Origin: a virus
Lineage: Duplodnaviria > Heunggongvirae > Uroviricota > Caudoviricetes
DNA: 22,358 nucleotides
IMG/VR virus record: IMGVR_UViG_2541047718_000017
Direction: 5' to 3' (one strand)
Under the pieces are notes generated by a model. It was not told where the DNA came from and did not search any database. It saw only the letters and a program-made list of their open reading frames with translations. Made by a program: the position numbers and the translations under genes. This document shows, piece after piece, positions 4,967 through 22,358 of the stretch (positions are counted from its first letter, which is position 1; each line of letters opens with the position of its first letter).

Positions 4967-5395
4967 CGTTGGCCCCGCTTCTCTGAATCGCTTTATACCG
5001 CCATTCCAGCACTTCGGTCAGCGGCATAACGTCAGTAACGGATGGCGGCCAGTGAAAAATGGTGGCGATATCTGCCACCAGATCGTCAACCGTCAGGCTG
5101 TCGGTAAACCGGCAAGCACCGACTTCTTCAACAAAAAAGTGACAACCTCAACCGACATGGCAGTGAGATCTGCCGGGTCCATCTCTGCAATTTCCTGTGC
5201 AGTCAGTGCCGGACTGGAGATGCGGGGGAGCACGGTCATCATCGCGTTTACATCCATATCCATAATGGCCTGCAGGCGTGTACCGCGCAGCGCACCGGAC
5301 TGCGGTTTACGCAGCACAATTTCGGTGATTTCTGTTTTACCGCGCTTGATGGGGGTATCCAGTTGAATGGTCTTTTCAGTCTGCTTATCGCTCAT
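4959..5395 (-). CDS. E': tail assembly chaperone E+E' (programmed -1 frameshift product, about 145 aa)
   Basis: T_TTT_TTG heptamer on the minus strand at 5138..5132 in the E frame (ACT TTT TTG); the -1 frame stays open for 57 codons to a TGA at 4961..4959, overlapping the T start (4966). Manually translated. Confidence 0.72.
5093..5395 (-). CDS. E: tail assembly chaperone E (zero-frame product)
   Basis: 100-aa ORF between FII and T; the slippery heptamer lies near its 3' end. Confidence 0.88.
   Translation of the reverse strand: MSDKQTEKTIQLDTPIKRGKTEITEIVLRKPQSGALRGTRLQAIMDMDVNAMMTVLPRISSPALTAQEIAEMDPADLTAMSVEVVTFLLKKSVLAGLPTA
5132..5138 (-). other. -1 ribosomal frameshift slippery heptamer TTTTTTG (E to E')
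   Basis: Plus strand reads caaaaaa; X_XXY_YYZ register matches the E reading frame. Confidence 0.7.
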
Positions 5396-5449: not shown

Positions 5450-5965
5450 TCAGAGGCCGAGGGCGTTGCGGTGCGCTTCCATCAGGTCCACACCGTCCAC
5501 AATTTCCACCATGTTGATAAGGTCCACTTCATAGAGCACCTCACCATTGATGGTCAGCTTCGCGTAGCTGTTGGTACTGGTCACTTTGGTGGTGTTGCTT
5601 TCGCCCGTCTTCCACTCGCCGGAATCCACTTCTTTGTGACGTCCACGCACGACAAGCTCCACGGCCTGCACTTCCCCGGTATCGTCACGCTGAATAGAGC
5701 CGGTAAAGCGCAGCTGGATGCCATCCACCGTGGCTTTACCCATCTGTTTAAACAGCAGCAATTCAGTACCACCAATGGAAAATTCTGTATCCAGCGCACT
5801 GTCATCAAGCCCCAGATCCACATCCACCGCACCCGGCATTCCGCCGCCGCGATACTTCTCATATTTGCGGGTAAATTTCGGCAGCGTCAGCGACTCAACG
5901 ATCCCCTGCCAGTTGTTCCCGTCGTTAAACAGGTTCAGGTGTTTTAATTTGCGTGGTAAAGCCAT
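5450..5965 (-). CDS. FII: tail tube protein
   Basis: 171-aa ORF; position and translation consistent with P2 gpFII. Confidence 0.9.
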   Translation of the reverse strand: MALPRKLKHLNLFNDGNNWQGIVESLTLPKFTRKYEKYRGGGMPGAVDVDLGLDDSALDTEFSIGGTELLLFKQMGKATVDGIQLRFTGSIQRDDTGEVQAVELVVRGRHKEVDSGEWKTGESNTTKVTSTNSYAKLTINGEVLYEVDLINMVEIVDGVDLMEAHRNALGL

Positions 5966-5974
5966 GTTGTCCCC

Positions 5975-6195
5975 TTACGCGCTGACCTGGCTGGCGAAAT
6001 TAACCAGGTACTGATCGGTGATGCGCTGACGCAGCATCAGGTTTTCAAGTGGCGGCACTGGCGTGTAGTCGTAGTCGATGGTGAGTTTTCCGGCTTTCAG
6101 CGTGTCTTTGTCGTTCACCGACTCATCCAGCCAGCAATCACCACCAATGAGATAGCCCTGACTGACCAGGCTGCGCATTTTGGCGCGGATACCTT
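5975..6195 (-). pseudogene. FI: tail sheath protein FI, detached C-terminal fragment (about 71 codons)
   Basis: ...[71 protein letters not shown] matches the P2 FI C-terminus; no FI-like sequence upstream of the junction at about 6194; the track ORF extends to 6337 only because no stop intervenes. Confidence 0.85.
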
Positions 6196-6207
6196 GGTTT
6201 GGGAGAA
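6182..6207 (+). other. hybrid invertase crossover site (junction A): FI-derived half GGCGCGGATACC, core TT, tail-fibre half GGTTTGGGAGAA
   Basis: 12-2-12 architecture; right half is the exact inverted repeat of 8045-8056; left half is sheath coding sequence. Confidence 0.7.
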
Positions 6208-6696
6208 GGCTCTGCATTACCGGTTGGGGTGCCTGTTCCGTGGCCTTCAGCCACTCCGCCAACAGGCTGGCTGAAATGCAACGGTGCCGCTTTTTCTGCT
6301 GAAGAATACCCGGAACTGGCAAAGGCTTATCCGACAAATAAATTGCCTGATTTACGTGGTGAGTTTATTCGTGGCTGGGATGACGGGCGTGGTATTGATG
6401 CTGTACGTGCCTTGCTAAGTCTTCAGAATGGAGGAGTGGAATCACACACCCACCAAGGGCAGCTCTTCAGAGTTAGTGATTATCGTACAAAAGAAATACC
6501 AGCATCAGAAGTTATGGGAAGAGGATATATTGCAAGCCTGACGCCGGGTGCTGATAGCCCACTTGATTTTGATGATTATTCTGTATCTTCTAATCCAAAT
6601 GGATATTTTGTCGGGAATCAGAGAACAACAGCATATGGGATAAATGAAACCCGTCCACGGAATATTGCATTTAACTATATCGTGAGGGCTGCCTGA
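6196..6696 (+). CDS. tail fibre variable C-terminal exon (Hv), currently not joined to the H constant region
   Basis: Begins GGT TTG GGA GAA (GLGE) immediately after the crossover core; translation ...[42 protein letters not shown]...NYIVRAA is a typical enterobacterial side-tail-fibre C-terminal receptor-binding domain; upstream in-frame stop at about 6163. Confidence 0.8.
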
Positions 6697-7298
6697 TGAA
6701 TAAAGCCGTATTAAATAACGAACTCATTGCCATAAAAGCGGGAGACATTACCATTTATAATTATGATGGTGAAACGCGGGAATATATTTCCACATCAACT
6801 GAATATCTTGCGGTTGGCGTCGGTATCCCGGCATGTTCTTGTTTAGATGCACCAGTTACACATAAAGCTGGTTATGCAATCTGCCGTTCTGCAGATTTTA
6901 ACTCATGGGAATATGTGCCAGACCATCGCGGTGAAATCATCTATAGCACCGAAACAGGAGAATCGAAAGAAATCACAGCTCCGGGTGATTACCCTGAAAA
7001 TACAACCACTATCGCCCCGTTAACGCCATATGATAAATGGGATGGTGAGAAATGGGTGACGGATACTGAGGCACAGCATAGTGCCGCAGTAGACGCGGCA
7101 GAAGCACAGCGCCAGTCACTGATTGATGCAGCAATGGCTTCCATTAGTCTGATTCAGCTGAAATTACAGGCCGGACGGAAGTTGACGCAGGCAGAAACAA
7201 CCCGACTTAACGCCGTGCTGGATTACATTGACGCGGTGGCGGCAACAGATACCAGCACCGCGCCGGATGTCATCTGGCCTGAACTGCCGGAGGCGTAG
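6696..7298 (+). CDS. tail fibre assembly chaperone (Tfa / Mu U-like) for Hv
   Basis: 200-aa ORF coupled to the Hv stop; C-terminal ...DYIDAVAATDTSTAPDVIWPELPEA motif typical of Tfa proteins. Confidence 0.85.
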   Translation: MNKAVLNNELIAIKAGDITIYNYDGETREYISTSTEYLAVGVGIPACSCLDAPVTHKAGYAICRSADFNSWEYVPDHRGEIIYSTETGESKEITAPGDYPENTTTIAPLTPYDKWDGEKWVTDTEAQHSAAVDAAEAQRQSLIDAAMASISLIQLKLQAGRKLTQAETTRLNAVLDYIDAVAATDTSTAPDVIWPELPEA

Positions 7299-7707
7299 GC
7301 CATTCAATATCTGGCGCACCGGTAGTATCGACTAGCTCCAGTGCGTCCAGATAATCCAGCCACGAATTATATTGCGCCAGTTCCTCGCTTTTCAGACGAC
7401 CAATAGCGGCTTTACCGGGCCATTGTTTACTGTTCATGTATTCGTTGGCCTGATTAAGCAATAATTGCCTTTCTGATTCTGCCTGTTGAATAAGTTCTTC
7501 ATGTGATGGTGGAGGTATTAGTGCCCATGTGGGTAATCCATTTTTTCCTGCAACACGAATTTTGTCATCTGGAGGCGTATTGATTGCAAATTCATTATAA
7601 ACATCATCACTGACAGCCAGAGCATCATCTGGCCATGAATTTGCATTAATGTAATCATCCTTAAGTGCAGGATTCACAAAAATGTTTAAAGATGGACTAT
7701 AAAACAT
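7270..7707 (-). CDS. alternative tail fibre assembly chaperone (Tfa', Mu U'-like)
   Basis: 145-aa ORF convergent with and overlapping tfa by 29 bp; C-terminal ...DYLDALELVDTTGAPDIEWPTPPA motif. Confidence 0.85.
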   Translation of the reverse strand: MFYSPSLNIFVNPALKDDYINANSWPDDALAVSDDVYNEFAINTPPDDKIRVAGKNGLPTWALIPPPSHEELIQQAESERQLLLNQANEYMNSKQWPGKAAIGRLKSEELAQYNSWLDYLDALELVDTTGAPDIEWPTPPAVQAR

Positions 7708-7708
7708 A

Positions 7709-8056
7709 TTACACCCCTATAGCGATATAACGACCTAATACAGCGTTTACAGCAGTCGCTATGCTTGAAAAACCGCGGAACTGATTTGATGTAATTGCAG
7801 AAGCCGACAGGATTCCTGCGCCTGAAGGTGTATGCCCCACATGACTAACTATCATTCCATAACATGCTGACGGAAAGGCAAAAGGAAAATCGTTAAGATA
7901 TCCGGCATCTTCACCACCAGACCCACCAAATCTCGCCTGCCCCCACTGAATAATCAGTGTTCTCCGGGAACCTGAAATAATTAACGGGATCGTTACATAC
8001 CCATTCAGGCCAATGACACCCGATGCAGTGCCAGCCAGAGATAATTCTCCCAAACC
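7709..8056 (-). CDS. alternative tail fibre variable C-terminal exon (Hv')
   Basis: Coding starts at the crossover core with the same GGT TTG GGA GAA (GLGE) as Hv; followed by tfa'. Codons upstream of 8056 in the track ORF (MMPVSCYLCIFLNV) lie in the outer half-site and are probably not coding. Confidence 0.78.
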   Translation of the reverse strand, partial: GLGELSLAGTASGVIGLNGYVTIPLIISGSRRTLIIQWGQARFGGSGGEDAGYLNDFPFAFPSACYGMIVSHVGHTPSGAGILSASAITSNQFRGFSSIATAVNAVLGRYIAIGV

Positions 8057-8070
8057 AACGTTTAAGAAAA
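8045..8070 (+). other. invertase crossover site (gix/hix/pix-like): TTCTCCCAAACC AA CGTTTAAGAAAA
   Basis: 12-2-12 near-dyad resembling the remembered hix/gix consensus (TTCTnnAAAACC-NN-GGTTT...); inner half is a perfect inverted repeat of 6196-6207; lies 56 bp upstream of the invertase start. Confidence 0.75.
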
Positions 8071-8125
8071 TGCAGAGGTAACAGCTAACTGGCATCATCT
8101 CCGGTTTTTATTCAGGGGGATGATC

Positions 8126-8692
8126 ATGCTTATTGGCTATGTACGCGTGTCAACAAATGACCAGAACACCGATTTGCAACGTAATGCACTGAACTGCGCG
8201 GGATGTGAGCAGATTTTTGAGGACAAAATCAGTGGCACTAAGTCCGACAGACCGGGGCTGAAAAAACTACTCAGGACACTATCGGCAGGAGACACGCTGG
8301 TTGTCTGGAAGCTGGACAGGTTGGGGCGCAGTATGCGGCATCTTGTTACGCTGATAGAAGAGTTGCGCCAGCGTGGTGTGAATTTCAGAAGCCTGACTGA
8401 CAGTATTGATACCAGTACCCCAATGGGCCGTTTCTTTTTTCATGTCATGGGTGCCCTGGCTGAAATGGAACGCGAACTGATAGTTGAACGTACCAGGGCA
8501 GGGCTGGCTGCAGCTCGTGCCAAAGGCAGAGTAGGTGGACGCCGTCCTAAGTTGACCACCGAACAGTGGGCACAGATTGGGCGTTTACTCGAGGCCGGAG
8601 AATCAAGACAGCGTATTGCACTGATTTTTGATGTAGGCGTTTCTACCATTTATAGAAAATTTCCGGCAAATAAGATCAATGAATCCCCCTGA
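8126..8692 (+). CDS. serine-recombinase DNA invertase (Gin/Pin/Cin/Hin family)
   Basis: MLIGYVRVSTNDQNTDLQRNAL...VVWKLDRLGRSMRHL...MGRFFFHVMGALAEMERELIVERT... matches Gin/Pin-type invertases from memory, including the catalytic Ser in YVRVST and a C-terminal HTH. Start taken at the internal ATG (track start 8120). Confidence 0.92.
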   Translation: MLIGYVRVSTNDQNTDLQRNALNCAGCEQIFEDKISGTKSDRPGLKKLLRTLSAGDTLVVWKLDRLGRSMRHLVTLIEELRQRGVNFRSLTDSIDTSTPMGRFFFHVMGALAEMERELIVERTRAGLAAARAKGRVGGRRPKLTTEQWAQIGRLLEAGESRQRIALIFDVGVSTIYRKFPANKINESP

Positions 8693-8740
8693 ATCAGCAT
8701 TATGTTGATTATCCCTGCAAGCAGACAAATACCGTTATTT

Positions 8741-8758
8741 TGTGTGAATAACGACACA
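8741..8758 (+). promoter_or_regulatory. Ogr-box (TGT-N12-ACA) of late promoter P_F upstream of FI
   Basis: TGTgtgaataacgacACA with 5-bp dyad arms, in the 143-bp gap between invertase and FI start, about 85 bp upstream of the FI ATG (8835). Confidence 0.6.
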
Positions 8759-8834
8759 ACTGCGCTTAGCTGTTTGTCAGGCACAATCACTTCAACATAG
8801 GGCGAAGCCTAATCCAATCAGGAGGTTCGCCACT

Positions 8835-9797
8835 ATGGCTCAGGATTACCACCACGGGGTGCGCGTTGTTGAAGTCAACGAAGGTACCCGATCTATTACC
8901 ACGGTGAGCACCGCCATCGTGGGTATGGTCTGCACGGGCGATGATGCCGATGCAAAAATGTTTCCTCTTAATAAACCCGTGCTGATCACTGATGTGCTGA
9001 CTGCCAGCGGTAAAGCGGGTGAGTCAGGTACTCTGGCCCGTTCGCTGGATGCCATCGCTGACCAGGCAAAACCCGTGACCATTGTTGTGCGTGTGCCGCA
9101 GGGTGAAACGGAAGACGAAACCACGACCAATATCATCGGCGCAGTGACTGCTGAAGGTAAAAAAACAGGTATGAAAGCCCTGTTATCTGCCCAGTCACAG
9201 CTCGGCGTTAAACCGCGCATTCTCGGCGTGCCAGGCCACGACACCAAGGCGGTAGCTACTGAGTTGCTGAGCGTGGCGCAAAGCCTGCGTGGATTTGCTT
9301 ACCTGTCAGCGTATGGCTGCAAGACAGTGCAGGAGGCGATCACTTACCGCGAAAACTTCAGCCAGCGCGAAGGGATGCTGATCTGGCCTGACTTTACTGG
9401 CTGGGACACGGTGCTGAATGCCGAAGCAACGGCATATGCCACCGCCCGTGCGCTTGGTCTGCGCGCCAAAATTGACGAGCAGACCGGATGGCACAAAAGC
9501 CTGTCCAACGTGGGCGTGAACGGTGTCACCGGAATTTCTGCAGATGTGTTCTGGGATCTGCAGGACCCGGCAACCGATGCAGGTCTGCTGAACCAGAACG
9601 ACGTCACCACGCTTGTGCGTAAAGACGGTTTCCGCTTCTGGGGTTCCCGCTGCCTGAGTGATGACCCGCTCTTTGCCTTCGAAAACTACACCCGCACGGC
9701 GCAGGTGCTGATGGACACGATGGCAGAAGCACACATGTGGGCGGTGGATAAACCGCTTAACCCGTCGCTGGCCCGCGACATTATCGAAGGTATGTGA
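8835..9797 (+). pseudogene. FI: tail sheath protein FI, N-terminal 319 codons, truncated at the inversion junction
   Basis: MAQDYHHGVRVVEVNEGTRSITTVSTAIVGMVCTGDDADAKMFPLNKPVLITDV... is near-collinear with the P2 FI N-terminus; reading frame ends ...RDIIEG-M-stop two codons after the crossover core. Confidence 0.88.
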
Positions 9798-9800
9798 GAA
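9775..9800 (+). other. hybrid invertase crossover site (junction B): FI-derived half GCGACATTATCG, core AA, H-derived half GGTATGTGAGAA
   Basis: H-side half (TTCTCACATACC on the minus strand) matches the Hv/Hv' half-site TTCTCCCAAACC at 10 of 12 positions; the other half is sheath coding sequence. Confidence 0.7.
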
Positions 9801-10836
9801 GACCAGCTACATCCTTTCCACTCAAATTGGTAAGCGTATTGTCCAGCGGTTGTTTACCTGCCAGCGCATTAAGCATTGTCGTGGCAAAGTTCGGATCATT
9901 CCCCAGTGCCGCCGCCAGTTCGTTCAGTGTATCCAGTGCAGCAGGTGCAGAACCCACCATTCCTGCAATCGCCGATTTCACAAAAGCCGTAGTGGCAATC
10001 TGTGTATTGTTGACCGACTGCGCCGCCGTGGGGGCTGTTGGCGTTCCGGTGAGTGCCGGACTCGACAACGGTGCTTTTAGTGCCAGCGCATTGTTAATGG
10101 TGGTACTGAAATTCGGATCATTGTTAATGGCTGCGGCTATTTCTTTCAGCGTGTCCAGCGTGGCTGGCGCACCATTAATAAGGGCCGTCAGTGCCGCCTG
10201 TACAAACGCAGTGGTCGCAACCTGCGTGGTATTATTCCCCGCCGCTGGCGTTGGCGCTTTGGGGGTTCCGGTAAATGTCGGGCTGGCTTTTGGCGCGTAC
10301 TGTGAATGCGGGTCCGGTGCGGCAAGATGTTTTGCCATCTGATCATCCGCGTACACCTTCAGCTCCAGTGCCTTGTCATCCACATACTTGCGGGTTGCCA
10401 GCACTACAGCAGGGTCGATTTTCAGGGTGATATTGTCCGTGCTGCTGGTAATCAGCACCATGCGCACGGTCTGAGTGCGCCCGCTACCTTCAGCCAGTTG
10501 CGGCTTATAGCTTTCCGGGCAGTTGCCCACGGCAATCAATGCACCTGACTCATCAAACAGGCCCACTTCACGTATCCACCAACCGCCCTCGTTTTCAGGG
10601 ATCACCTGTTCGGCAATAATCTGGCTGCTGTTCTGCGGGTCGATATAAAGCATATTCAGCGCAGCCCGGCGTTTCTCATTTACCAGTGCCGTCTGCTTTG
10701 CGTCCGGCGTTGGCAATACTCCACCGCCATCGCCCACCGCCATATGGGTAATTTTTAGCGGCACACCGAGCGCGGCGGCGCTGGCAAGTTTCGCCGCGCC
10801 AATATCCGTCAGCAGGGTATAAAATTTTGTGCTCAT
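9781..10836 (-). CDS. H: tail fibre protein H, N-terminal constant region (Mu Sc-equivalent), ending 2 codons after the crossover core
   Basis: MSTKFYTLLTDIGAAKLA...MAVGDGGG...ESYKPQLAEGSGRTQT... and the repeated ...TQIATTAFV... motifs match the P2 gpH N-terminal part; the ORF ends ...LTYL-R-stop at the junction with antisense FI. Confidence 0.88.
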   Translation of the reverse strand: MSTKFYTLLTDIGAAKLASAAALGVPLKITHMAVGDGGGVLPTPDAKQTALVNEKRRAALNMLYIDPQNSSQIIAEQVIPENEGGWWIREVGLFDESGALIAVGNCPESYKPQLAEGSGRTQTVRMVLITSSTDNITLKIDPAVVLATRKYVDDKALELKVYADDQMAKHLAAPDPHSQYAPKASPTFTGTPKAPTPAAGNNTTQVATTAFVQAALTALINGAPATLDTLKEIAAAINNDPNFSTTINNALALKAPLSSPALTGTPTAPTAAQSVNNTQIATTAFVKSAIAGMVGSAPAALDTLNELAAALGNDPNFATTMLNALAGKQPLDNTLTNLSGKDVAGLLTYLR

Positions 10837-13306: not shown

Positions 13307-13324
13307 TGTATCAGTGCTGATACA
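13307..13324 (+). promoter_or_regulatory. Ogr-box (TGT-N12-ACA) of late promoter P_V
   Basis: TTGTATCAGtgCTGATACAA, a 20-bp dyad with 9-bp arms, in the 68-bp gap between S stop and V start. Confidence 0.6.
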
Positions 13325-13328
13325 AAGA

Positions 13329-13775
13329 TCACCCCGCCAGCCATTGCAGAATCATGTCGCGGGTCATTGCCTCAACATCATCATTTACACCCAGAAGGCG
13401 ACGCTCTGCGTAACGCACCTCCGGTCCCTTACGACTGACGCGATCTCGCAGGCCGTAATGGTGAACGCGGGCAATGCGCTGCACCTTGCCTTCAAACTGC
13501 ACGCTGGCAGAGTCGGCGCTGGCGGAAGTTTTCAGGTATTTTGTGGTGCGCAGCTTTGCAAACATCTGACGTTTGATACGGCCTTTTTTACTGCGTGCTG
13601 TTACCCGTCGCGGTTCATAACTGCTGCCATCTGGATTGCGCTGCATTCTGATATTTTGCTGCTGTGTCCGGCGTAGTTCCTGCGCCAGCTGGCGCATCAT
13701 GCGGCTTCTTGCGGCTGGCTCCAGATTCGCCAGCAAGGCACTCAGCCAGTCGTCCACTTTCTGCAGTTCAGCCAC
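13329..13775 (-). CDS. S: tail completion protein S
   Basis: 148-aa ORF; ...RRTQQQNIRMQRNPDGS...RVTARSKKGRIKRQMFAKLRT...VQRIARVHHYGL... matches P2 gpS. Confidence 0.9.
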   Translation of the reverse strand: MAELQKVDDWLSALLANLEPAARSRMMRQLAQELRRTQQQNIRMQRNPDGSSYEPRRVTARSKKGRIKRQMFAKLRTTKYLKTSASADSASVQFEGKVQRIARVHHYGLRDRVSRKGPEVRYAERRLLGVNDDVEAMTRDMILQWLAG

Positions 13776-14220
13776 GTTTCACCGTCCACATTTCTTCAGG
13801 TTCATCAGGTTCCGCTATAGCTTCAACGCTCGACACACTGCCGTCAGTGCTGACCAGCACACGCTCCGTCAGTTGCAGGTTGAGGCTGATATCACAGACA
13901 TCGTTGCGCAGAATATCCACCTCAAAGGTGAATAGCTTTTCCCGTAACGCCGGGTTATTGATGGCATCGGGCTGGTTATCACGCAGCCACAGCAAAACCG
14001 GGGCCATCAGCAGATTCTGGTCGCCGCTGAAATCCTCAATCACCACGTTCAGGGTGTAGCGGTACTCCCATGACATGGAGCTGGCCCCCGTGGCAACCAG
14101 CGAACCGTTATCCACAAACAGATGCAGTTTGTCCGGGTTATTGCGGACATAAGGCACCGCTTTATTGAGGGCGTGGCGCAGGGATTGTGGTTTGTTCACT
14201 GTTTCGCTCCTGACACGCAA
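13768..14220 (-). CDS. R: tail completion protein R
   Basis: 150-aa ORF; ...FVDNGS...RYTLNVVIEDFSGD...WLRDNQPD... matches P2 gpR; exact start uncertain. Confidence 0.85.
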   Translation of the reverse strand: MRVRSETVNKPQSLRHALNKAVPYVRNNPDKLHLFVDNGSLVATGASSMSWEYRYTLNVVIEDFSGDQNLLMAPVLLWLRDNQPDAINNPALREKLFTFEVDILRNDVCDISLNLQLTERVLVSTDGSVSSVEAIAEPDEPEEMWTVKRG

Positions 14221-14452
14221 TAATCATGTCCACTTTGTCTGCACAGACCGCCCAGGCGGCCTCCGTTTCATCCAGCAACGCATTCAGATCACCGTTAGTG
14301 CGCGGTGCTGCCTGCTCCAGCCGACACGGCGTCACTCGCGGACAACCACTGACGGTAAGCTGCACCTCCGGTGAGTGCCGGACGTTCCCGCAGCCGGATA
14401 ATGTCAGCAGGCAAAGGAGTATCAGCCCAGTGGCGTAAATCCTCGTTCTCAC
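14162..14452 (-). CDS. lysC: outer-membrane spanin lipoprotein (Rz1-like)
   Basis: 96-aa ORF in an alternative frame overlapping the lysB 3' end and the R 5' end; N-terminal lipobox LLTLSGC. Confidence 0.72.
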   Translation of the reverse strand: MRTRIYATGLILLCLLTLSGCGNVRHSPEVQLTVSGCPRVTPCRLEQAAPRTNGDLNALLDETEAAWAVCADKVDMIIACQERNSEQTTIPAPRPQ

Positions 14453-19214: not shown

Positions 19215-19232
19215 TGTACCGACAACCACACA
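19215..19232 (+). promoter_or_regulatory. Ogr-box (TGT-N12-ACA) in the divergent O / P-Q promoter region
   Basis: tTTGTaccgacaaccacACAAa with 5-bp dyad arms, in the 142-bp gap between the O and P start codons; which promoter it serves is unresolved. Confidence 0.5.
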
Positions 19233-19278
19233 AACCGCAGGCGGGGAAAGCCTTCATTCAAGGTTGTAGGTTTGTGCC

Positions 19279-21045
19279 ATGAACACCACACTGACACCCG
19301 CAGATCTCGATCCCCGTCGGCAGGCCATGCTGCTGTACTTTCAGGGATACCGCGTAGCCCGCATTGCTGAAATGCTGGGCGAGAAAGTTGCAACCGTTCA
19401 CAGCTGGAAAAAACGCGACAAGTGGGGTGACTATGGGCCGCTGGATCAGATGCAGCTCACCACCGCCGCACGCTACTGCCAGCTCATCATGAAGGAGCAC
19501 AAAGAAGGGAAAGATTTCAAAGAGATTGACCTGCTGGCGCGCCAGTCGGAGCGCCACGCGCGGATCGGCAAGTTTAACAATGGCGGCAACGAAGCCGACT
19601 TAAACCCTAACGTCGCCAACCGCAATAAAGGCCCACGCCGTCAGCCGGAAAAGAATGTTTTCACCGATGAGCAGATTGAGAAGCTGGAAGAAATCTTCCA
19701 TTCCTCCATGTTCAACTACCAGCGCCACTGGTGGGAAGCCGGAAAAACCAACCGCATCCGCAACCTGCTGAAGTCACGCCAGATCGGCGCGACCTTTTAC
19801 TTTGCCCGTGAAGCCCTGATTGACGCCCTGCTTACCGGACGTAACCAGATTTTCCTTTCCGCCAGCAAGGCACAGGCCCACGTCTTTAAGCAGTACATCA
19901 TCGACTTCGCCAAAGAAGTGGGGGTGGAGTTGAAAGGCGATCCGATGGTGCTTCCTAACGGGGCCACGCTTTACTTCCTCGGCACCAATGCCCGCACGGC
20001 CCAGAGTTATCACGGCAACCTGTATCTGGATGAATATTTCTGGATACCGAAATTCCAGGAGCTGCGCAAAGTGGCTTCCGGTATGGCTATTCACAAAAAA
20101 TGGCGACAAACCTATTTTTCCACGCCATCCAGCCTGACACACAGTGCTTATCCGTTCTGGTCCGGTGCGCTGTTCAACCGTGGGCGCAACAAGGCCGACA
20201 AGGTGGACATCGACCTGTCCCACAGCAATCTGGCCCCCGGCCTGCTGTGCGCAGACGGGCAATACCGCCAGATAGTCACCGTGGAAGATGCGGTGCGCGG
20301 CGGCTGTAACCTGTTCGACCTTGACCAGTTGCGCATGGAGTACAGCCCGGACGAATACCAGAACCTGCTGATGTGCGAGTTTGTGGACGATCTCGCGTCC
20401 GTATTTCCGCTCAGCGAGCTGCAGGCGTGCATGGTGGACAGCTGGGAAGTCTGGACCGACTTTCATGCACTGGCTCTGCGCCCGTTTGGCTGGCGCGAAG
20501 TGTGGATCGGTTATGACCCGGCAAAAGGTACGCAAAACGGCGACAGCGCCGGATGCGTGGTGGTGGCACCGCCAGCCGTGCCTGGTGGTAAGTTCCGCAT
20601 TCTTGAGCGTCACCAGTGGCGCGGGATGGACTTCCGCGCCCAGGCTGACGCCATCAAAAAACTGACCGAACAGTACAACGTGACCTATATCGGTATCGAC
20701 TCAACCGGCGTTGGTCACGGGGTTTATGAGAACGTGAAAGCGTTCTTTCCTGCCGTCCGGGAGTTTGTCTACAACCCCAATGTTAAAAACGCCCTGGTAC
20801 TCAAGGCCTACGACATTATCAGCCACCGCCGTCTGGAGTTTGACGCCGGGCACACCGACATTGCGCAGTCATTTATGGCAATCCGTCGCGCTACCACTGC
20901 CAGTGGCAACCGCCCGACCTATGAAGCCAGCCGCAGCGAAGAAGCCAGCCATGCCGATCTGGCCTGGGCAACAATGCACGCACTGTTTAACGAACCGCTG
21001 CAGGGCGAGTCCGCCAATACCAGCAATATTGTGGAGATTTTTTGA
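19279..21045 (+). CDS. P: terminase large (ATPase) subunit
   Basis: 588-aa ORF divergent from O and followed by Q, as in P2. Confidence 0.92.
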   Translation: MNTTLTPADLDPRRQAMLLYFQGYRVARIAEMLGEKVATVHSWKKRDKWGDYGPLDQMQLTTAARYCQLIMKEHKEGKDFKEIDLLARQSERHARIGKFNNGGNEADLNPNVANRNKGPRRQPEKNVFTDEQIEKLEEIFHSSMFNYQRHWWEAGKTNRIRNLLKSRQIGATFYFAREALIDALLTGRNQIFLSASKAQAHVFKQYIIDFAKEVGVELKGDPMVLPNGATLYFLGTNARTAQSYHGNLYLDEYFWIPKFQELRKVASGMAIHKKWRQTYFSTPSSLTHSAYPFWSGALFNRGRNKADKVDIDLSHSNLAPGLLCADGQYRQIVTVEDAVRGGCNLFDLDQLRMEYSPDEYQNLLMCEFVDDLASVFPLSELQACMVDSWEVWTDFHALALRPFGWREVWIGYDPAKGTQNGDSAGCVVVAPPAVPGGKFRILERHQWRGMDFRAQADAIKKLTEQYNVTYIGIDSTGVGHGVYENVKAFFPAVREFVYNPNVKNALVLKAYDIISHRRLEFDAGHTDIAQSFMAIRRATTASGNRPTYEASRSEEASHADLAWATMHALFNEPLQGESANTSNIVEIF

Positions 21046-22154: not shown

Positions 22155-22358
22155 TGAACCGCCCCGGGAATCCTGGAGACTAAACTTCCTGAGAAAGAGG
22201 TAAACAGGATGACTAAAAATACTCGTTTTTCCCCCGAAGTCCGTCAACGGGCAGTCCGTATGGTTCTGGAAAGTCAGAGCGAATATGACTCACAATGGGC
22301 GACAATTTGTTCCATTGCTCCAAAGATTGGCTGTACGCCGGAGACTCTGCGTGTCTGG
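22155..22358 (+). mobile_element. IS3-family insertion sequence, left end (IS629/IS1203/IS3411-like), truncated by the window edge
   Basis: Terminal TGAACCGCCCCGGGAATCCTGGAGACTAAACTTCC matches the IS629-group left inverted repeat as I remember it, followed by the orfA start. Confidence 0.8.
22209..22358 (+). CDS. IS3-family transposase OrfA (N-terminal HTH part, partial)
   Basis: Translation [50 protein letters not shown] is characteristic of IS629-group OrfA. Confidence 0.8.

Follow-up and report, generated by a model that had tools for sequence, protein, structure and literature searches.

A tail-fibre switch cassette detached from its fibre gene by a probable invertase misfire in a P2/186-like prophage remnant of Escherichia coli

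Introduction

Does an invertible tail-fibre cassette that looks complete still work as a host-range switch? The question is raised by IMG/VR virus record IMGVR_UViG_2541047718_000017, a stretch of 22,358 nucleotides (nt) that we call the window (one strand, with all window coordinates 1-based on the full stretch), which is a P2/186-like prophage remnant from an extraintestinal E. coli lineage. In it, two alternative C-terminal exons of the tail fibre H, Hv and Hv', lie in opposed orientation, each with its own assembly chaperone, beside a gene for a serine DNA invertase. The original prediction, made from the letters of the window, described a Mu G-segment-like cassette within a P2-type tail module, bracketed by a 14-bp inverted repeat, in which either exon would fuse in frame to the constant N-terminal part of the fibre (Hc). 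We find the cassette at these coordinates and the constant region elsewhere. The switch was very probably scrambled by a misfire of the invertase system, in which the crossover site of the H gene recombined with a quasi-site in the tail-sheath gene and positions 6194-9788 were inverted.

Results

The gene order of the window shows how far the tail module has been rearranged. From the left, D, U, T, E, the tube gene and a 3' fragment of the sheath gene all lie on the minus strand and are followed by the cassette, in which Hv and tfa (+) face tfa' and Hv' (-). The invertase gene and the 5' part of the sheath gene (both +) come next, and then Hc, I, J, W, V and the genes beyond them (all -). CE10 (O7:K1), a close relative, has the canonical P2 order, with an intact 390-aa sheath and a 516-aa fibre composed of Hc and Hv; N32 has the same order with the cassette flipped and a 465-aa fibre composed of Hc and Hv'. 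Against CE10, window positions 6189-9793 form one block of 100% identity, which runs in the opposite orientation to the sequence on either side. When 6194-9788 is turned back in silico, both open reading frames (ORFs) are restored with no indel, and the restored window differs from CE10 by 3 single-nucleotide polymorphisms (SNPs) in 8,501 bp and, when the cassette is flipped as well, from N32 by 2.

This larger inversion split the sheath gene, cut Hc from both exons, and left three pseudogenes. About 80% of the sheath gene lies inside the inverted block, and its match to Phage_sheath_1C is divided, with profile positions 1-47 ending near 9790 on the plus strand and positions 47-104 found at 5975-6195 on the minus strand. 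Hc lies 3.6 kb from the left end of the cassette, where the minus-strand sheath fragment adjoins position 6194 instead. The prokaryotic genome annotation pipeline (PGAP) calls all three genes pseudogenes in the genomes AR_0013 and AF57: the sheath 3' fragment is 'missing N-terminus', the sheath 5' part 'missing C-terminus' and Hc 'missing C-terminus'. The in-frame fusion of either exon to the H constant region is thus a property of the canonical relatives and not of the window. The inversion also creates a predicted chimeric ORF of 120 codons (5975-6337, -), in which 47 codons running antisense through Hv are joined to the C-terminal 73 of the sheath.

The crossover sites bear on the origin of the inversion. 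Each 26-bp site is divided 12-2-12 around a central dinucleotide, and we scored sites in bits with a matrix derived from 16 half-sites already known. CE10 and N32 have two full inverted sites with matching cores (31.6 and 29.8 bits), whereas in the window the right-hand site is intact and the left-hand one is a hybrid. The intact site is the invertase-proximal one that was used in the cassette flip between CE10 and N32. The two hybrid sites of the window each combine one half of the H site of CE10 with one half of its sheath site; they are exactly reciprocal, and the exchange neither added nor removed a base. One breakpoint falls, to the base, on the 2-bp core of a genuine site that recombines in sister genomes. 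The left hybrid has one consensus half only (half-site scores of -2.6 and 16.9 bits), and the halves of the right hybrid score -6.5 and 14.8 bits.

The partners have in common the heptamer AAGGTAT, made up of the 2-bp core and five adjacent bases. They lie 3.6 kb apart in inverted orientation, with cores TT and AA on the same strand and the enhancer-equivalent stretch between them. The picture is that of quasi-site recombination, with one genuine site and one weak match of the same central dinucleotide, inverted on the same molecule, and two hybrid sites as the outcome. Iida and Hiestand-Nauer are said to have found, in 1986 and 1987, that Cin uses such quasi-sites (cixQ) and chooses them by their central dinucleotide; PMC4134206 cites both papers.

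Some observations weigh against a misfire of the invertase. The sheath site fits the consensus badly (-9.1 bits), ranking 473rd among 22,333 positions. Even when only the 2,696 positions whose core is AA or TT are counted, it is 40th; 39 others score at least as well, and the shared 7-mer alone would account for the use of this one. The event was found in one lineage only, whereas a preferred quasi-site would be marked by recurrence. In AR_0013 there are four invertase-like loci, three beyond the resident gene, and Pin enzymes act in trans (PMC12529663), so the catalyst may have come from the resident gene or from another. The poor score, together with the mere six positions in the window that share the 7-mer with the H site, does fit a misfire that is rare.

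The same poor score invites an explanation that needs no invertase, namely illegitimate or microhomology recombination at the 7-bp inverted repeat ATACCTT/AAGGTAT found at the breakpoints. We consider this improbable. One of the two breakpoints falls on the core of a genuine 26-bp site that is active in sister genomes, and the exchange was conservative and reciprocal. Furthermore, any of six positions could have offered the 7-mer, and many longer chance inverted repeats of 14-16 bp went unused.

That the window holds a working Mu G-like switch, with either exon fused in frame to Hc through the 14-bp repeats, deserves very little credence. Cassette, chaperones, invertase and repeat are all there, and the system does work in this way in relatives, but a sheath fragment occupies the position left of 6194, Hc is distant and truncated, the left site has a single consensus half, and the homology points to the e14 P segment. 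For the window, the flanking genes have already refuted this reading.

A programmed three-site shufflon, in which the sheath site would be a third functional site and the large inversion a reversible tail-off state, is scarcely credible. P2-like prophages of enteropathogenic E. coli (EPEC) do have three inverted repeats and four variants (PMC4272514), and the hybrid sites of the window are inverted, with matching cores and an intact invertase at hand, so that reversal is chemically possible. However, the half-site matrix scan of the restored sequence, by which the third-site hypothesis was rejected, found no third consensus site: two sites score about 30 bits and the next best, located elsewhere, only 10.7. 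The aberrant state is found in 2 genomes against 447 canonical ones, and it is fixed in one sublineage that was already without replication genes, CI and integrase. It is very doubtful that the switch has the large inversion as a third state that can be reversed, in which flipping back at low frequency would give on/off control of sheath, fibre and the downstream tail operon. It is likewise only a remote possibility that the inversion was selected for silencing the tail operons in a remnant without CI repressor.

An assembler that mis-oriented the 3.6-kb block is effectively excluded, even though invertible regions do yield alternative contigs in long-read assemblies (PMC4134206), since the same junctions are present in two independent complete genomes from different sources, AF57 and AR_0013, and in three metagenome contigs, and the 7-bp breakpoint repeat is too short to mislead an assembler.

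The rarity of the event was gauged with junction-specific 301-bp queries against 5,426 complete E. coli genomes. Two of them, AR_0013 (GCF_003571685.1) and the UK blood isolate AF57 (GCF_988242825.1), run collinear with the window at 100% identity, and no other genome does so; these are also the only 2 of the 5,426 with both aberrant junctions. The canonical junctions were found in 447 genomes altogether, Hc-Hv in 426 and Hc-Hv' in 21. CE10 and N32, which have opposite cassette orientations, are 2-3 SNPs apart. The cassette thus varies in orientation among related prophages, as the original prediction had expected of a true recombination site. The three metagenome contigs contain the left aberrant junction and represent the same prophage (at least 99.9% identity) and the same event. 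The arrangement is thus a real one that is in circulation. No independent aberrant junction was found in species-representative genomes or viral contigs with patterns allowing variant half-sites. One of the three contigs (QWBY01036999.1, 1365-1810) is chimeric, passing from window-identical sequence into low-GC Firmicutes-like DNA with an amidohydrolase-like C-terminus; the two parts are joined through a shared 24-mer encoding DTLKAGKL.

Five related genomes allow the decay of the element to be ordered. All have the prophage in the same split LysR gene between sad and yneK, and in all of them an IS3-family element stands directly after the portal gene in place of the early region. The replication genes were therefore already lost, and the element in the window is a late-gene-only remnant (ogr to Q). 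In the window itself the left end of the IS3-family element (TGAACCGCCCCGGG...) occupies 22155-22358, about 75 bp past the portal gene. CE10 and N32 keep CI and integrase and the canonical order of sheath and cassette, with C at SNP 5929 and T at SNP 5230. IAI39 has a larger deletion that leaves only a truncated integrase; its sheath, its H site (joined to Hv) and its quasi-site are intact, and it has A at 5929 and T at 5230. AR_0013 and AF57, like the window, have this same larger deletion, the aberrant inversion, A at 5929 and G at 5230. The junction of IS3 with the truncated integrase gene was found only in AF57, AR_0013 and IAI39; as IAI39 has lost the cassette to IS26, this sublineage offered no revertant to observe.

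Because IAI39 shares the CI/integrase deletion and the SNP at 5929 and keeps the sheath, the H site and the quasi-site, the events can be placed in sequence: the replication genes were lost first, then CI and integrase, and the inversion then occurred on the branch leading to AF57 and AR_0013. The most parsimonious reading is that it happened once, in an element no longer selected as a phage, and was inherited from there.

The deletion common to AF57, AR_0013 and IAI39 is adjacent to the IS3-family element (AF57 locus 35709-37291; CE10 locus 27164-32898). It takes a CII fragment, the CI repressor, ISEc53, a ClbS-family gene and the N-terminus of the integrase, all of which are present in CE10 and N32, and so leaves the late-gene cluster and its ogr-like activator without a repressor. 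In IAI39 (locus 13604-14365 and 25133-25837), IS26 replaces most of the cassette and the invertase gene, so that Hc and 106 bp of Hv remain, and the terminase gene is broken by another copy of IS26. The same remnant has thus decayed here by a separate route.

The cassette itself is largely as first described, and its features are collected in Table 1. The opposed exons, their chaperones and the 29-bp overlap of the convergent tfa and tfa' are all present, with Pfam identifying Collar, Gp53-like_C and Caudo_TAP domains. The exons do resemble tail-fibre C-termini, a likeness whose absence would have told against the cassette, and both translations begin with G-L-G-E. GC content is lower inside the cassette (0.39-0.45) than in its flanks (0.53-0.58), and the invertase gene lies just outside. 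The observation therefore stands for the cassette and fails for the flanking fibre constant region; the interpretation stands for a Gin/Cin/Pin-type invertible fibre cassette within a P2-type tail module, and fails for kinship with Mu G and for the fusion in the window.

Table 1 Features of the rearranged tail module in the window and the two parental crossover sites in CE10
Feature	Position in window	Strand	Evidence and remarks
Inverted block (cassette, invertase gene, sheath promoter dyad, sheath 5' part)	6194-9788		3,595 bp; opposite to canonical order
Tail-sheath gene (FI) 3' fragment, last ~73 codons	5975-6195	-	Pfam Phage_sheath_1C, profile 47-104; translation ends QVSA*
Left hybrid site	6182-6207	+	GGCGCGGATACC-TT-GGTTTGGGAGAA; sheath-derived half, core TT at 6194-6195, Hv half-site
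Hv, fibre C-terminal exon, StfE-like, orphaned	6196-6696	+	Pfam Collar, E=5e-16; 58% identity with e14 StfE
tfa, assembly chaperone for Hv, TfaE-like	6696-7298	+	Pfam Caudo_TAP; 92.5% identity with e14 TfaE
tfa', assembly chaperone for Hv', TfaP-like	7270-7707	-	Pfam Caudo_TAP; 48% identity with e14 TfaP
Hv', alternative fibre C-terminal exon, orphaned	7709-8056	-	Pfam Gp53-like_C; 36% identity with StfP C-terminus
Invertase-proximal site, intact	8045-8070	+	TTCTCCCAAACC-AA-CGTTTAAGAAAA; 29.8 bits; same in CE10
Serine DNA invertase gene, Pin/Cin/Gin family, intact, 188 aa	8126-8692	+	Pfam Resolvase and HTH_7
Stretch equivalent to the annotated P1 cin recombinational enhancer (gene nt 19-90)	8144-8215	+	Function predicted from sequence identity
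TGT-N12-ACA dyad upstream of sheath start, putative activator site of late promoter pF	8741-8758	+	Within inverted block
Tail-sheath gene 5' part, ~318 sheath codons, runs into junction and then a stop	8835-9797	+	Pfam Gp18_domIII_N, Phage_sheath_1 and Phage_sheath_1C (profile 1-47)
Right hybrid site	9775-9800	+	GCGACATTATCG-AA-GGTATGTGAGAA; sheath-derived half, core AA at 9787-9788, Hc half-site
Hc, constant N-terminal part of fibre H, without receptor-binding exon	9787-10836	-	Pfam Phage_tail_fib; premature end ...AGLLTYLR*
H site (CE10)			TTCTCACATACC-TT-GGTTTGGGAGAA; 31.6 bits
Sheath-gene quasi-site (CE10)			GCGACATTATCG-AA-GGTATCCGCGCC; -9.1 bits

The 14-bp repeat TTGGTTTGGGAGAA was found, as predicted, at 6194-6207, with its exact complement at 8045-8058. 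Taken alone, this inverted repeat is not beyond chance: the window contains six distinct perfect 14-bp inverted-repeat pairs, and one or more such pairs appear in 66% of Markov resamples, or in 17% if the pair must lie within 2.5 kb. What makes the repeat credible is that the breakpoints of natural inversions lie precisely at it and that it is identical to the repeat of the e14 P segment, which is inverted by PinE, PinQ and PinR (PMC12529663). Other perfect inverted repeats of 14-16 bp are found at 2739-2754/8295-8310, in the tape-measure and invertase genes, and at 3958-3972/6015-6029, and further perfect pairs connect unrelated genes (2175/3798, 3110/10161 and 4419/9036). These look like chance matches, and length alone is no mark of a recombination site.

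The closest solved structure to the invertase is Gin (3uj3, E=3e-93); the active-site motif YVRVSTNDQ is conserved, and identity is 87% to PinE, 78% to Cin and 75% to Gin. Over nucleotides 19-90, the gene shares 78% identity with the P1 enhancer and 88% with pin, compared with 70% and 77%, respectively, over its whole length, which suggests that this stretch may act as a recombinational enhancer.

The window contains six TGT-N12-ACA dyads, which we take to mark the Ogr/B-activated late promoters of P2-family phages, and four of the six lie in the four expected late-promoter intergenic regions. Apart from the dyad in Table 1, these are at 13307-13324, 19215-19232 and 19273-19290, with the V|S and O|P intergenic regions occupied, and their positions are consistent with the four late promoters of that family. 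The putative sheath promoter dyad would now be aimed at Hc and away from the tube gene, E, T (tape-measure), U and D, with a probable consequence for transcription of these genes.

Residues 181-340 of Hc are 80% identical to residues 253-412 of the P1 tail fibre S, and a second, offset alignment of the two proteins at 52% suggests an internal repeat. The distal half of Hc thus appears to have a mosaic fibre ancestry in common with P1.

Discussion

We propose the following course of events. In the normal state, two 26-bp sites bracket Hv-tfa and tfa'-Hv', and a flip by the invertase joins either exon in frame to Hc. The ancestor of the window would have had its cassette in the Hv-on state. Instead of pairing the Hc-proximal site with its proper partner, the invertase would have synapsed it with the sheath quasi-site (sequences in Table 1), the catalyst being either the resident invertase or a relative acting in trans. 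We infer that this was a Pin/Cin/Gin-family enzyme working with Fis and the enhancer. A conservative exchange at the core would then have inverted 3,595 bp, splitting the sheath gene, severing Hc from the exons, and turning round the promoter dyad of the sheath operon. As the replication genes, the CI repressor and the integrase had already been lost, the event would have been inherited without counter-selection.

If an invertase was indeed the catalyst, the window offers a clean natural case of a prophage's own, still active recombinase damaging its carrier, with both parental sites, both hybrid sites and the ordered steps of decay kept in sister genomes. It also calls for caution in annotation, as a cassette may look like the textbook case, with its repeat and its invertase, and yet be cut off from its function, and orphan exons come to be annotated as stand-alone "tail fiber protein" genes. 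RefSeq does this here, calling a 'tail fiber protein' at 6199-6696 (with a TTG start) and a 'gp53-like domain-containing protein' at 7709-8095, and the authors of the EC958 study warned of the problem (PMC4134206). The understanding of invertase systems is unchanged.

Among known systems, the cassette belongs, by its repeat and its protein similarities, with the e14 P segment of E. coli K-12 and not with Mu G. The e14 P segment, inverted by PinE, has the same TTGGTTTGGGAGAA repeat, the same four-gene layout with convergent, overlapping chaperones, and its invertase gene just outside; in the same gene order, identities are 58% for StfE, 92.5% for TfaE, 48% for TfaP, 36% for the C-terminus of StfP and 87% for PinE. 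The two differ in that e14 is a lambdoid remnant, while the window cassette serves a P2/186-type contractile-tail fibre with a Phage_tail_fib N-terminus, and in that a second and larger inversion has separated the window cassette from its constant region.

The Mu G/Gin and P1 C/Cin systems belong to the same class of mechanism: each has a serine invertase, crossover sites of 26 bp centred on a 2-bp core, and a choice of fibre C-termini that come with chaperones. They also have an enhancer within the 5' end of their invertase genes, the equivalent of which in the window is predicted from sequence. At 1.9 kb, the window cassette is smaller than that of Mu (3.0 kb) or P1 (4.2 kb). The homology search proposed in the original prediction does not bear out a Mu G-like label: BLASTP against Mu, P1 and e14 proteins gave no match of Hv or Hv' to Mu S or S' at E<=1e-3, tfa' matched Mu U' weakly (29% over 73 aa), and Mu G homology was rejected for that of e14 P, the closest relative.

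The cassettes of EC958 Phi1, Phi2 and Phi4 and of the EPEC P2-like prophages have the same architecture, and in them both orientations coexist (PMC4134206, PMC4272514). The EC958 Phi2 site, TCCTCAATTACC-TT-GGTTTAGGAGAA, is very similar (PMC4134206). Both reports concern normal site-to-site inversion, and neither describes an inversion into the sheath gene (PMC4134206, PMC4272514).

The cassette system itself is thus already known, and what is new is a documented natural off-target inversion that breaks the element's own tail genes. To our knowledge, off-target invertase events of this kind were known before only from selection experiments. The Cin quasi-site events of Iida and Hiestand-Nauer were reportedly selected on P1 or on plasmid testers, and are said to have joined a genuine site to a poor one sharing its central dinucleotide, rarely and with two hybrid sites as products. 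Whereas those cixQ events were selected, the event in the window was spontaneous, is fixed in natural isolates, and destroys two structural genes of the very element that bears the invertase.

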